From Patescibacteria group bacterium (GTDB taxonomy: Bacteria; Patescibacteriota; Patescibacteriia; 2-01-FULL-39-33): a stretch of DNA of 64,000 nucleotides. Where the stretch lies: contig JBAZKF010000001.1 of assembly GCA_041650895.1 (NCBI GenBank), positions 573,181-637,180 of the forward strand. The letters are read 5' to 3'. The notes under the pieces were generated by a model that had not been told where the DNA came from, ran no database searches, and saw only the letters and a program-made list of their open reading frames with translations. A program made the position numbers and the translations under genes. Below are positions 5,009 through 18,273 of the stretch, in pieces; the stretch's first letter is position 1, and the number at the start of each line of letters is the position of its first letter.

Positions 5009-5849
5009 ATGCCATCAAAAGTCCTATCGGCCGCGATTGTCGGATTGGAGTGCGAGCCGGTGGAAGTGGAAGCGGATAACAGCCCCTACGGTAACCCGGG
5101 GGTTTTTATTGTTGGCCTGCCCGACAAGGCCGTGGATGAAAGCAAAAGCCGTGTCCGTAGCGCCATTAAAAATTCCGGCTTTGAATTCCCGCGTGGCAAT
5201 GTCACTTTCAATTTGGCGCCGGCCGATCTGCGCAAAGGCGGCACACATTATGATTTGCCACTGGCTGTAGCCGCCATGCTTCTAAACGAACAAACCAAAT
5301 TAACCGACTTTGCTTCCTCGCTTTTTGCCGGCGAGCTGGCTCTAAGCGGTGAAGTGCGTCCGGTATCCGGAATATTATCAATTGCCTTATTCGCCAAACA
5401 AGCCGGCATTAGCAGCCTGTTCGTACCGACAGCCAATGCCAAGGAAGCGTCGCTGATTAACGACTTAAACATTTATCCGGTCAAAAATCTGGCACAACTG
5501 GCCCAGCATTTAGCCGGAAAAGAATTAATTGAGCCCTGCGCCGAATGGCAACAAGAGATTGAGGAAATAAATTTTCCGGTAGACCTGCAACATATCCGCG
5601 GCCAGAATTCGGCTAAGCGCGCGCTGGAAATCGCCGCGGCCGGCAGTCATAATATTCTCATGTCCGGTCCTCCTGGTTCCGGCAAAACCATGCTGGCCAA
5701 AGCTTTACCCTCCATTTTACCACAAATGACTCAGGAAGAAAGTTTGGAAGTGACCAAGATTTATTCCGCCGCCGGACTCTTACCGGCTGATCAGCCACTG
5801 ATTACCCTGCGACCATTTCGCGCGCCCCATCATACCGCCTCTGGCGTGG
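5009..5849 (+). pseudogene. comM: comM/yifB (Mg-chelatase-like AAA+ competence protein) 5-prime fragment, interrupted after ...[11 protein letters not shown] by an integrated element (attL at 5842-5848)
   Basis: N-terminal Lon-protease-like and Walker A (GPPGSGKT) regions of YifB/ComM; C-terminal 15 aa of tracked ORF (5009..5890) are read-through into the element; remainder of gene found at 17596..18273. Confidence 0.85.
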
Positions 5850-7456
5850 CTAGTACAATACTGAGGCAATTGGCCACTGTCTCCTGCTGAAACTGGCAAA
5901 AACCCCCTTATTATAAGCTTTTTTTCAACTTCATTTTTAATAATAGATACCTCTTCTATGAAGTTATTAATGAAGCCAATTTTGCCAACTTTGTCTGATT
6001 TATCAATTTTCTTATAATTTCTGCGAGCCATTTTACAAAAATCACCAATACCAATACGAATATCTTTTATTTTTCCTAATAATGCTATTTTCTTGTTTAT
6101 CTCCTGTTTATCAAGTATAAGATCACTGCATTTAGCATCTATCTCATTAATCTTAGCAATATAGTCCTCCTTACTCACATGGCTTTCAGAATATAAGTCT
6201 AAAATTCTCTTTTTCTTTTCTTCCAAACTTACTATCTGCTTGCCAATGCCAACTAACTCACTATTAAGTCCCCTTAGATTCTCCCCCTTTGAATTATTTA
6301 GAATATCAATATACCTTTTGATGATTTTAGGTTGCAATACCTTCTCCAATACAACATTAGATACTACCTCATCTACTACTTCACTTTTTATTGATTGATT
6401 CTTGCATTTTACTAAATCCTCGGTATTATTGTGTTGGTATAACTTTTCCCTATGGTTGCATCTGTAATATTGAACGCCCTTGCTCATACACCCCGAATAA
6501 GTATGATTACAAACCCCGCACTTAACCAAACCGCCTAATAGATAGCGATAACTCGTATTTCTCAATAACTTGCCATTTCTTTTTAGCTTGTTCTGCACTA
6601 TATCAAACAGCTCCTGAGAGATAATTGGAGGGATAGGCACCAAAATCCATTCCGACTGGTCTTTAAACCGAGTAGAAGTCTTGACTGATTTAGCGTATTT
6701 GATTACTCCATTCTTAGATTCAAACTTCTCTGTTTGATTAAAATAATGATTCCCGAAATAGCTAGTATTAGTTAATATCCTTCTAATGACACTGCTCTTC
6801 CAATAAGTCTTACCAGTGGCCGTCTTAATCTTTTTATCTTCTAATATTTTAATTAATCCCGTAATACTTACGCTCGTATTAGCATAAGTTCCATAAATTA
6901 ATTTGATTACTTTGGCATGCTCTTCATTAATAGTGTAATAGCCTCTCTTATTATCAGTCTTCTTATGATGATCATAGCCAAACAATGTTCCAGAATCTAC
7001 TATGTGCCCTTGTCTTGCTTGTTCTCTCCTACCTCTAGTAAATCTCTCAGTTATCCTTGCTTTTTCATACTCATTAACAGCACCCATTACATTTAAATTA
7101 AACTTATTCTCTGGATTGTTAATGTAGTTCTTGCCCTTGATAATTATCTCCTTTTGATATTTCAGAAGCTCCGCAATGATAATATTCTGATAAGAAATAT
7201 CCCTAGCAATCCGATCTGAATCTAAAAAATAGACCACATCAAATTGGTCTGTTTTTAAATCTCCCCTTAATTCATCAAGTGCGGGACGATCTAATCTTCC
7301 GCCACTCCAGCCATTATCGATATACTCCTTAACAAGGATATTGCCATCTTTTTTGATTTGTCTTATCAGCTCGTTTTTTTGACTTTCAATAGTACCTTCA
7401 TTCTCTTGAAGGCTGGTACTAACTCGAGCGTAATAAACTGCTTTTTTCATATACAT
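5780..7456 (-). CDS. Large serine recombinase (resolvase catalytic domain + recombinase domain + zinc ribbon/coiled coil)
   Basis: N-term YARVSTSLQ catalytic serine motif, 558 aa; last ~23 codons (5780-5848) lie outside the element in antisense comM sequence, i.e. ORF reads through attL. Confidence 0.85.
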   Translation of the reverse strand: MYMKKAVYYARVSTSLQENEGTIESQKNELIRQIKKDGNILVKEYIDNGWSGGRLDRPALDELRGDLKTDQFDVVYFLDSDRIARDISYQNIIIAELLKYQKEIIIKGKNYINNPENKFNLNVMGAVNEYEKARITERFTRGRREQARQGHIVDSGTLFGYDHHKKTDNKRGYYTINEEHAKVIKLIYGTYANTSVSITGLIKILEDKKIKTATGKTYWKSSVIRRILTNTSYFGNHYFNQTEKFESKNGVIKYAKSVKTSTRFKDQSEWILVPIPPIISQELFDIVQNKLKRNGKLLRNTSYRYLLGGLVKCGVCNHTYSGCMSKGVQYYRCNHREKLYQHNNTEDLVKCKNQSIKSEVVDEVVSNVVLEKVLQPKIIKRYIDILNNSKGENLRGLNSELVGIGKQIVSLEEKKKRILDLYSESHVSKEDYIAKINEIDAKCSDLILDKQEINKKIALLGKIKDIRIGIGDFCKMARRNYKKIDKSDKVGKIGFINNFIEEVSIIKNEVEKKLIIRGFLPVSAGDSGQLPQYCTSHARGGMMGRAKWSQGNQWLISR

Positions 7457-7487
7457 TTTTTACTCCAGTATTAAAATACCGTGGCAA

Positions 7488-16743: not shown

Positions 16744-17514
16744 TTACACTTCTTTTTTTCTTTTATTGATTAAAGATATAATACTTGATATATCTTGATA
16801 GCCAAGATCTCTTTTAAATTTATCATTAACTAGTTTTGCAATCTCCTTCCTTGGTTTTTCTTGGATACTACTTATATAATCGTACATTTTAACAGTATTA
16901 GCGTCTTTATCTCTAAATTTACCAATTTTTATATTACTTCTCCTATGCCTTTTTTGTAGTTCCTTAATCTTCTCGTCATTTTTTTTAATAAAATCAACGA
17001 TCTCATTTTGACTAGCATAGGGGCTAATTCCAATAGATATTGGATATTCTAAGTCTTGTAGGTATTCTAACGCATCATTTTCTTCATATTCTTCTTTAGT
17101 AATTCTTTCTTTTATTCGTTCTTTATCCTTACATCTTCTCAGCCACATTTTATCTAATAGTATACATAGATCCCAACTCCTTATTGTGATTGGTTTGTTA
17201 TAAACAATAAAAAAGTATACCTCGGCATAAAGAGATGATCTACCCAATCCCTTTTTTATACAAAAATCTTGGACATTAACTAAAATAGTTTTATTGTCAT
17301 TTTCACTACCTATTCCTTTCAACCTCCACTCAACTGGCAAACTAAAGGGGGAATTATAATTATTAGGCGTAGTAAGGCCTGTTTGTGGTATTTGATATTT
17401 TTCTCTCAACTGCAATACCATTTGATTAAACTCGTCCGATTTTAACAATTCTATAGTGTAGTTATTAATATTCTTTATTCCTTTTGTAATTTTGTTGTCT
17501 TTTTCCATATACAT
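16744..17514 (-). CDS. Hypothetical protein (256 aa), first gene at right end of element
   Basis: ORF track. Confidence 0.4.
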   Translation of the reverse strand: MYMEKDNKITKGIKNINNYTIELLKSDEFNQMVLQLREKYQIPQTGLTTPNNYNSPFSLPVEWRLKGIGSENDNKTILVNVQDFCIKKGLGRSSLYAEVYFFIVYNKPITIRSWDLCILLDKMWLRRCKDKERIKERITKEEYEENDALEYLQDLEYPISIGISPYASQNEIVDFIKKNDEKIKELQKRHRRSNIKIGKFRDKDANTVKMYDYISSIQEKPRKEIAKLVNDKFKRDLGYQDISSIISLINKRKKEV

Positions 17515-17595
17515 TTACATATTATTGCCCTAATTCTACCCCAATCTCTCAATTATCTCAAATCTGACTACCTCACCATTGTACACGCCATTGGC

Positions 17596-18273
17596 GTGTC
17601 GCTGGTAGGCGGCGGTGCCTGGCCGCGTCCGGGGGAAATCTCCCTGGCGCATCGTGGTGTATTGTTTCTGGATGAATTCCTGGAGTTCCCTAAGACTGTT
17701 CTGGAGAATCTGCGCCAACCGCTGGAAGACGGATTAATCAATGTTTCCCGCGCCGCCGGCACCTTGCGCTTTCCCGCTAAATTTATCCTGACCGCTGCGC
17801 TTAATCCTTGTCCCTGCGGTTATCTGACTGACCCGGAAAAAGAATGCACTTGTTCGGCCGCAGAAATATTACGCTATACCAAACGCGCTTCCGGACCACT
17901 TATGGACAGAATTGACATGCATCTGGAAGTGCCGCGAATAAAATTTGAAGAACTCTCCGGCAATAGCAACAGCGAACCGTCAGCGACGGTGCGTGGACGA
18001 GTCCAAAACGCTCGTGATATTCAATTAATCAGATTTAAAACGGAAAGAATATTCGCCAACAGTGAAATGTCTTCCGAACAAGTTAATATTTATTGTAAAA
18101 TTGACGAACCAGCTAAGCAACTTATCCGCCAAGCCGTAGAAAAATTGCGTTTATCTCCGCGCGTTTATTTCCGTATTCTCAAACTTACCCGCACTATTGC
18201 CGACTTGGAAGTTAGTGAAGAGATAAAGTGCGAACATATAGCCGAAGCCTTGCAATACCGGCCAAAAGAATAA
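17596..18273 (+). pseudogene. comM: comM/yifB 3-prime fragment (C-terminal AAA+ lid and Mg-chelatase C-terminal domain)
   Basis: [27 protein letters not shown]... matches YifB downstream of HHSAS; frame open upstream into element arm with no start. Confidence 0.85.

Follow-up and report, generated by a model that had tools for sequence, protein, structure and literature searches.

The 64-kb window analyzed here (the whole stretch of contig JBAZKF010000001.1, from a genome of the Patescibacteria) contains a mobile element of 11,750 bp that interrupts the comM gene, also named yifB. The element is very probably an episome that was integrated into comM by its own large serine recombinase (LSR). 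This account is directly supported by the split gene and its exact reconstruction, by the empty sites of related genomes, by the domains of the LSR, by the dyad symmetry of the attachment site of the element (attP) and by free circular relatives. By analogy with other LSR elements, the element would also be able to excise. According to the proposed course of events, a circular, self-replicating plasmid-like element would have entered the chromosome through its own LSR, which would have paired the 46-bp attP with the chromosomal site attB at the PHHTASGV(S/A)LVGGG codons of comM. Cuts with a 2-bp stagger at the central GG, i.e. at bases 1 and 2 of a Gly codon, followed by strand exchange, would have generated attL and attR as hybrid sites and left comM in two non-functional parts. 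As the LSR gene contains attP within its 3′ end, integration would at the same time have replaced the conserved C-terminal β-strand of the recombinase with host-encoded residues.

Both junctions were read directly, and they interrupt comM at 5848|5849 and at 17598|17599. The left junction is ...catcataccgcctc-TGGCGTG-gctagtacaatactgagg..., with the heptamer at 5842-5848, and the right junction is ...cctcaccattgtacacgccat-TGGCGTG-tcgctggtagg..., with the heptamer at 17592-17598. The insert has a length of 11,750 bp whichever of the seven shared bases is chosen as the cut point (e.g. 5849-17598), and the sequence confines the crossover to these seven bases, but no finer. The initial annotation had described an 11.75-kb insertion that splits comM at a 7-bp TGGCGTG repeat; the split, the repeat and the size were all found, whereas the crossover cannot be placed at one position within the shared bases.

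Joining 5009-5848 and 17599-18273 yields an in-frame open reading frame (ORF) of 1515 nucleotides (nt) that encodes 504 amino acids (aa), and thus deletion of the insert does restore comM, as had been predicted. The rejoined ORF matched the YifB family model TIGR00368 from 1 to 499 of 499 positions in a single stretch (591 bits, cut-off 362.4). It was also aligned end to end and in a single stretch with the E. coli-type model PRK09862 (6-492 of 506), in accord with the earlier remark that the restored product is spaced like E. coli YifB. With the equivalog model of E. coli YifB, NF007365, it scored 401.9 bits versus a cut-off of 530; a score below the equivalog level, though from end to end, would be expected for a protein from a distant phylum. 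The Pfam Mg_chelatase profile is divided exactly at the split, as the match of the N half stops at position 89 and that of the C half starts at 89. The ORF of the N part continues inside the element as far as 5890. The GC content is 0.28-0.37 within the insert versus 0.43-0.49 in the flanks. The split would be expected to abolish ComM function, and judging from work in other bacteria, the helicase may have a role in natural transformation also in this host (PMC11472951).

The rejoined ComM was scanned against one genome per species. This placed the host in Candidatus Buchananbacteria (Patescibacteria) and retrieved two genomes, L001 and L026, with an uninterrupted ComM of 92% identity. A comparison with related genomes that have an intact comM had been recommended in the initial annotation, and these two genomes exhibit the empty site: the whole 11.75 kb is absent, the flanks are collinear on both sides, and the attB sequences align to the reconstructed site without gaps. 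The window positions 3696-5847 and 17593-20711 map next to each other in L001, with an overlap of 5 bases. The identity of the comM N part to both genomes is 84-85% at the nucleotide level as far as 5847, and collinearity with the C part starts at 17593. Because the element is absent from genomes with a 92% identical ComM, its insertion appears to be recent.

The window stems from a metagenome-assembled genome, and the composition shifts sharply at both junctions, as would be the case if the split were an assembly or binning chimera. However, the probability of such a chimera is negligible. In the Logan assembly of run SRR8542065, two contigs correspond with 100% identity to window positions 4436-10539 and 10559-20964, each of them crosses one of the two junctions (attL and attR, respectively), and the break between them falls at a 33-nt coding repeat. 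A chimera would also not yield a 7-bp repeat, inverted arms and an in-frame restoration, and the same architecture exists in four other genomic contexts. The joining of an unrelated AT-rich contig into comM by misassembly or misbinning was thus rejected within the limits of the data, as a separate assembler spans both junctions.

Attachment sites and insertion orientation

The arm motif GTACAATNNTGAGG has exactly two copies in the 64 kb, at 5853-5866 (+) and at 17571-17584 (-). The chance expectation is 0.17 matches, and two matches were reached in 0 of 100 shuffles. The imperfect inverted repeats that had been noted next to the core are thus located at both insert ends and nowhere else in the window. 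In the direction of the LSR gene, the reconstructed 46-bp attP is CCTCAGTATTGTACTAGCCACG-CC-AATGGCGTGTACAATGGTGAGG, with arms of 22 nt that are complementary at 16 of 22 positions (binomial P about 3.5e-6). This agrees with the quasi-palindromic LSR-type attP of ~46 bp that the initial annotation had proposed. In five related attP sites, two of which could be read directly from free forms, 14-16 of the 22 positions are complementary.

The predicted junction sequences are CCTCACCATTGTACACGCCATTGGCGTGGCTAGTACAATACTGAGG for attP and CATCATACCGCCTCTGGCGTGTCGCTGGTAGGCGG for attB. The center of attB is the GG of a Gly codon (its first two bases) in the conserved motif PHHTASG(V/I)(A/S)LVGGG. Among 27 related intact comM genes, 21 have GG at this position, four have an Ala codon (GC) and two a Ser codon (TC); with the reconstruction from the window included, GG is present in 22 of 28 aligned attB sites. 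On the basis of the established LSR mechanism, the cut would fall on this central dinucleotide.

The same comM codon, HHT(A/S)SGV|, is occupied by LSRs with identities of 54-77% in four further, distinct genomic contexts (L081/L090, L082/L083, L091/L100 and L170), and their cargo varies. In addition, the LSR locus of the contig L092, of which one junction is available, abuts the C half of comM at this position too.

The elements do not all point the same way. The LSR gene of the window and that of L170 adjoin the comM N half and read into comM antisense, whereas those of L081/L090, L082/L083 and L091/L100 adjoin the C half and read in sense. The order of the arms relative to the LSR gene is the same in both groups. 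The attP center is CC in the window, in L170 and in the free L172, and it is GG in L081/L090, L082/L083, L091/L100 and in the free L171. In LSR systems the central dinucleotide alone sets the polarity. The results fit an insertion orientation that tracks the inverted central dinucleotide of attP as natural variation, in a small sample of two (CC) and three (GG) independent integrated cases. A modular dinucleotide core of LSR sites has been noted before (PMC10083194). The natural set of related attP sites, in which inversion of the dinucleotide would invert the insertion at one and the same attB, is of interest as this effect was previously known mainly from engineering.

The LSR-comM junction of L092 (about 3020-3060) has a GC center, matching hosts with the Ala codon (intact comM genes of L019, L022 and L023). 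A GC center is palindromic and would not set the polarity, and L092 is an outlier to the dinucleotide rule.

A recombinase gene that spans the attachment site

The insert encodes a full LSR, in agreement with its description as a serine-recombinase element. The protein contains the Pfam domains Resolvase (PF00239, profile positions 1-144 of 145, E 7e-25), Recombinase (PF07508) and Zn_ribbon_recom (PF13408), and it matched the integrase family phrog_95 (1e-86), with weak matches to CcrB and XisF. The serine motif YARVST with R11 and S13 is invariant in 27 relatives, and the zinc ribbon cysteines C313, C316, C333 and C351 are also invariant. Translation probably starts at the ATG at 7450, as it does in relatives. 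The narrower clade has identities of 45-77% and forms one cluster at 50% identity; a metagenome scan with the LSR profile yielded at least five close loci. Two other assignments of the insert, a Tn7-like comM island and a tyrosine-integrase element, were rejected, the former because there are no transposase genes.

An AlphaFold2 (AF2) model of P0134, a 57% identical relative, has a mean predicted local distance difference test (pLDDT) score of 79.5 and includes long helices at 389-459 (coiled-coil). In a Foldseek search with this model, the integrase (Int) of SPβ was retrieved with E 1.7e-22, and Bxb1, phiC31 and LI Int were also matched. When structure and sequence are both considered, SPβ Int (9dxh/9y66) and LI/A118 Int (4kis) are the best matches of the LSR.

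Throughout the clade (window, L081, L082, L091, L170 and L172), attP sits within the 3′ end of the LSR gene. In the window the LSR ORF spans attL, and the codons after 5849 are derived from the host (...HARGGMMGRAKWSQGNQWLISR). The C-terminus of the integrated form is ...CTSHARGGMMGRAKWSQGNQWLISR, while that of the circular form, with a predicted length of 556 aa, would be ...CTSHANGVYNGEVVRFEIIERLG*, and integration thus swaps the last roughly 18 residues for host-encoded ones. The free-form ORFs that were rebuilt for L081, L082 and L091 are in frame and end with (V/M)(R/K)FE(I/V), and the same tail motif is present in the true free forms P0131, P0134, P0137 and P0145. In each of the four integrated relatives that could be read at both junctions, the orphaned tail is complete and has kept its reading frame. 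Changes at third codon positions and an in-frame insertion of four codons suggest that there is selection on the tail protein. A motif x[IL]xFx[IV]x, located 4-34 residues past a conserved GxxP, was found in 71 of 120 LSR relatives, and it was absent in 14 of 14 comM-integrated forms, which were recognized by their tails. Among the representatives of clusters at 50% identity, the comM LSR clade falls into the single cluster P0139, and no additional tails were retrieved.

In the P0134 model, the attP-encoded residues 521-548 are disordered, and residues 550-558 form a β-strand with a pLDDT of about 80. A profile of the motif-bearing relatives aligned GsvPvk to KGPIPAQ(523) of SPβ Int, which continues with FEITPILRFNFIFD... 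past this point; a sequence search with the 51-aa tail did not align the SPβ Int C-terminus. Judging from its position and the local similarity, the Phe of the tail, F553 in P0134 and the Phe of VVRFEII in the window, probably corresponds to F532 of SPβ Int. In a cryo-electron microscopy study of SPβ Int, F532 was described as important for directionality control and as flanked by residues of the recombination directionality factor (RDF; PMC11722253).

The exchange of the tail could be neutral, it could be disabling, or it could act as a switch. We considered that the state-dependent tail might be a built-in sensor of directionality or state and, together with the flipped dinucleotide, might constitute a self-contained variant of LSR control in this family of episomes; this idea is improbable. 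The enzyme of the integrated form could, for example, be able to excise the element, or be prevented from doing so, without the involvement of a separate RDF. A non-exhaustive search of the open-access literature retrieved no account of an LSR whose attP lies within the int ORF. The exchange of the strand by recombination itself would offer a testable handle on directionality control.

Two further readings bear on the fate of the inserted copy. The first is that the copy is locked in, i.e. that with the loss of the terminal strand excision has become impossible and decay lies ahead. The distribution of the strand motif described above would be compatible with this, the genes for archaeal integrases of the SSV type are also partitioned upon integration, and neither the exact rejoined ComM nor the exact free-form LSR (with both possible starts) had a match in a collection of 15 billion proteins. 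However, all ORFs of the element are intact, as are the two att sites and the orphaned tail, the insertion is recent in that it is absent beside a 92% identical ComM, and the conservation of attP inside the ORF throughout the clade is hard to reconcile with a dead end. A locked-in copy therefore seems improbable.

The second reading is that the insertion is mainly a reversible switch of comM, a case of regulated gene integrity or active lysogeny similar to the elements in comK, sigK and spsM, which would excise under particular conditions and so restore transformation-associated recombination. Excision by the LSR would indeed restore comM exactly, the intact and in-frame orphaned tail in the four integrated relatives fits ongoing cycling, and yifB is among the candidate genes for regulated integrity (PMC7192596). 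In contrast, neither an excised nor an empty state of this element was found in the 15-billion-protein collection, the close relatives are simply without the element, and the variable cargo and the free replicons among the relatives point to selfish mobility instead of host-controlled development. Thus, a host-controlled switch is an unlikely explanation.

Gene content and relatives of the element

The features of the element and of its integration site are compiled in Table 1. All genes of the element are on the minus strand with one exception, and this single plus-strand ORF is followed by a bidirectional terminator-like hairpin (13355-13376).

Table 1. Features of the inserted element and of the interrupted comM gene (window coordinates)
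Feature	Position	Strand	Remarks
comM/yifB N part	5009-5848	+	Residues 1-280: ChlI/Lon-like domain, Walker A; Pfam ChlI and Mg_chelatase 1-89
attL	5821-5866		comM B arm 5821-5842, central GG 5843-5844, element arm 5845-5866 (cgtggctagtacaatactgagg)
Large serine recombinase (LSR), integrated form, 558 aa	5780-7456	-	Pfam, phrog_95, motif conservation
Secreted Cys-rich protein, 528 aa, cargo	7488-9074	-	Signal peptide, WxxWxxC-type repeats
Small membrane/secreted proteins: 64, 45 and 139 aa, DUF3761 lipoprotein (9822-10187), 199-aa transmembrane/coiled-coil protein	9052-10792	-
HTH_17 (excisionase/MerR-type) DNA-binding protein, 56 aa	10797-10967	-	PF12728, E 2e-17
Membrane proteins of 78 and 153 aa, CAP-domain protein (11692-12219), 98-aa protein	10974-12469	-	PF00188 CAP, 3.5e-14
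Zn-ribbon protein, 111 aa	12706-13041	-	Conserved with this LSR clade
79-aa ORF, sole plus-strand gene	13117-13356	+	Called as a gene in L176 too
211-aa protein	13387-14022	-	Follows the replication gene in relatives
Replication protein, 751 aa	14027-16282	-	Zn-finger, Toprim primase, C-terminal domain with Walker A-like APSSTGKS
DUF5659 protein	16294-16539	-	PF18903; hallmark of the element family
Basic protein, 256 aa	16744-17514	-	First gene past attP in the circular form
Orphaned LSR 3′ end	17536-17592	-	...NGVYNGEVVRFEIIERLG*; rejoins the LSR ORF solely in the circular form
attR	17571-17616		Element arm 17571-17592 (cctcaccattgtacacgccatt), central GG 17593-17594, comM B′ arm 17595-17616
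comM/yifB C part	17599-18273	+	Residues 281-504: Walker B, sensor regions, Mg_chelatase_C; Pfam Mg_chelatase 89-206

The replication protein matched Toprim_2 (E 6.5e-10), PHROG families of primases and primase/helicases, and DnaG primase cores in the PDB. Its C-terminal 400 residues had no above-threshold match in Pfam and none in the PDB or in annotated phages or plasmids; some relatives carry weak precomputed DUF3854/PF27228 flags over this region. Relatives of the primase with about 60% identity number more than 2000; many of them are encoded on contigs of 7-16 kb, and the named ones are mostly from Patescibacteria. The mean column identity across 25 relatives is 73%. Homologues of the DUF5659 protein are encoded in L081, L082, L084, L086, L091, L170 and L172, and the 211-aa protein is 34-48% identical to proteins in L082, L170 and L092. 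The secreted 528-aa protein had no match in Pfam, PHROG or PADLOC, but it is 57% identical to a 519-aa protein that adjoins the LSR in L081.

Two proteins are candidate directionality factors. HTH_17 genes are present also in L081, L082, L084 and L086, and the HTH_17 protein is a candidate for a directionality factor or a regulator. Copies of the Zn-ribbon protein with identities of 45-71% adjoin the LSR or are located near it in L082/L083, L092 and L170, and this protein is likewise a candidate directionality factor.

A promoter-like sequence, TTGAGA-17-TAGAAT, is located at 17561-17533 (-), within the orphaned LSR tail and just upstream of the gene for the 256-aa protein. The sequence here is also conserved in L081, and the LSR gene of the circular form would thus overlap at its 3′ end with the promoter region of the next operon. 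Three tandem 33-nt repeats (10499-10597) in the gene for the 199-aa membrane protein encode AEVAKAKAVSE-type repeats.

The contigs L084 to L089 have the common order DUF5659, primase, two small proteins and LSR, with restriction-modification genes as cargo. L084 is a 14.4-kb contig that encodes the primase, DUF5659 and LSR, and as it has a terminal overlap of 121 bp, it would represent a circle of about 14.2 kb. L173 is a circular permutation of L172 (6.9 kb), which is therefore taken to be a free circle; the LSR ORF of L172 extends across attP. The contig L171 (ENA contig_68709, 53.5 kb) encodes a 47% identical LSR (P0145) with the free-form tail and a comM-type attP with GG as its center. 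This LSR gene is located beside genes for ParA/ParB, a TrwB-type coupling protein and a relaxase, and therefore the same integration module also rides on a conjugative-type replicon. A second, unrelated LSR clade is present on primase/DUF5659 elements (L086 12159-13805 and L089 4619-6265). The ORF of these LSRs reads through the stop region into a tRNA-like target sequence (GGATTCGAACC...), and both contigs end 24 bp past the LSR gene, pointing to a tRNA as the location of an att site and to an assembly break there.

The element thus encodes a replication protein of its own and has free circular relatives, as an integrative plasmid-like episome does. The Pfam and PHROG scans revealed no genes for capsid, portal, terminase, tail, or lysis and lysin functions, and integrase and primase were the only phage functions matched. 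The same scans of the element proteins yielded no relaxase, coupling protein, type IV or other secretion system, and no origin of transfer (oriT) was found. PADLOC detected no defense system, with only weak DnaG-like matches to the primase. The Rfam scan of the element had no match, tRNA genes are absent from it, and the repeat search retrieved no iteron-like origin, just the 33-nt coding repeat. Single-protein scans of IMG/VR (2.9 million contigs) with the LSR and the primase gave no full-length relative. With the primase profile, only the N-terminal primase domain was matched there, at an identity of at most 32%, and a degenerate attP pattern had no match in this collection. In tblastn searches with the primase, GenBank phages and PLSDB plasmids yielded only distant N-terminal matches.

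Based on the primase, the free circular relatives, the lack of virion and conjugation genes and the lack of full-length relatives in IMG/VR, the element is in our view best interpreted, with high confidence, as an integrative, self-replicating episome of Patescibacteria. Some points weigh against this interpretation. For this particular element, no empty site and no circular junction came to light, an integrated LSR without the conserved terminal strand may be impaired, and the HTH_17 and Zn-ribbon proteins are candidate directionality factors only. In addition, 10 of the ~17 genes of the element are without a detectable family, and unrecognized virion genes could be among them.

The last point leads to the possibility that the element is a temperate virus with divergent structural proteins, perhaps a capsid-less enveloped one similar to plasmaviruses or pleolipoviruses. 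Viruses of these groups combine an integrase, a large secreted protein, small membrane proteins and a replication protein in genomes of similar size, and the 11.75 kb and the layout of the element recall them. The ten genes without a family would leave room for structural proteins, and the best PHROG match of the LSR is a phage integrase family. The small membrane proteins and the secreted 528-aa protein would then be virion components. However, Pfam and PHROG show no virion, packaging or lysis function, the block of membrane and secreted proteins is not kept in relatives, which contain restriction-modification or other cargo instead, the 6.9-kb free L172 offers very little coding room, and IMG/VR is devoid of a full-length relative. 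A prophage is therefore unlikely, and less likely than an episome.

Taken as an episome, the element belongs to a larger group. The very conserved primase/DUF5659 module has more than 2000 relatives, with no full-length one in IMG/VR, and is characteristic of small integrative episomes that form a widespread family in Patescibacteria. A description of this family was not found in a non-exhaustive search of the open-access literature. Plasmids have rarely been studied in bacteria of the Candidate Phyla Radiation (CPR; PMC12023590), and the element is a well-resolved case from a phylum in which mobile elements are barely described.

Several other features of the window were observed outside the element. 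Downstream of groEL, 1.6 kb (22556-24168) have no counterpart in L001, which has 783 bp at this position. A 385-aa ORF at 22740-23897 (-) looks by eye radical-SAM-like (CNLRCVYC motif) and has a Cys-rich C-terminus. A tRNA-Ile with the anticodon TAT (UAU) is encoded at 28842-28915 (+); a tRNA-Ile with a UAU anticodon is an uncommon bacterial way to read AUA. From about 33500 to 49900 the GC content is lower (0.34-0.39 versus about 0.44 nearby); the stretch includes a 1407-aa ORF at 37611-41834 (-) and may be another island or a surface-protein region.

Comparison with known systems

The comM/yifB family is the commonest known LSR target. Of the predicted site-specific LSRs, 12.4% target homologues of Mg-chelatase/ATP-dependent protease (comM), and LSR targets are enriched in competence genes (Durrant et al. 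2022, PMC10083194). Furthermore, yifB is on a list of genes for which control of gene integrity by integrative elements has been proposed (Mageeney et al. 2020, PMC7192596), and in Acinetobacter, mobile genetic elements (MGEs) frequently target comM (PMC11472951). The statement of the initial annotation that comM is a recurrent MGE target is thus well founded in the literature (PMC10083194, PMC7192596, PMC11472951). LSR insertion into comM is already known; the element adds a case from Patescibacteria, with attP located inside the LSR gene and with a natural set of dinucleotides and orientations among its relatives. With the known comM-targeting LSR elements (PMC10083194, PMC7192596), the element shares the LSR domains, an attP beside int, the exact reconstruction and a short crossover identity. 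It differs in its uncultured patescibacterial host, in being a small primase episome and not a tailed prophage or an integrative and conjugative element (ICE), and in having attP in the LSR ORF.

In Acinetobacter, islands of the AbaR/Tn6019 type are also inserted in comM, and a benefit of disabling the ComM helicase has been proposed for them as well. The rationale put forward is that loss of ComM limits the removal of MGEs by transformation (PMC11472951). However, these islands are Tn7-like transposons, and the mechanism and the insertion site are different. The loss of ComM in organisms that are thought to depend on DNA uptake fits the concept of MGEs that disable transformation-driven curing.

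SPβ (integrase SprA/YokA, RDF SprB, target spsM) and the Listeria phages A118/φ10403S (comK) have in common with the element that a gene is disrupted upon integration and restored upon excision, but they are tailed phages of 40-130 kb with defined RDFs. The C-terminus of SPβ Int, ...PILRFNFIF..., resembles the tail strand of the element, ...EVVRFEIIE.... In the phage record, the SPβ Int ORF does not have an arrangement that spans the attachment site, whereas in the element, integration removes from the LSR a strand that is probably the counterpart of the F532 region.

An attP within a coding sequence is found in the tyrosine integrase genes of SSV1-type fuselloviruses and in the integration-dependent immunity system of mycobacteriophage BPs, and, as in the element described here, the free and the integrated forms encode different proteins. 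However, the SSV1 enzyme belongs to another recombinase superfamily, and in BPs the gene concerned encodes a repressor, whereas in the element the exchange is limited to roughly the last 18 residues of a serine integrase.

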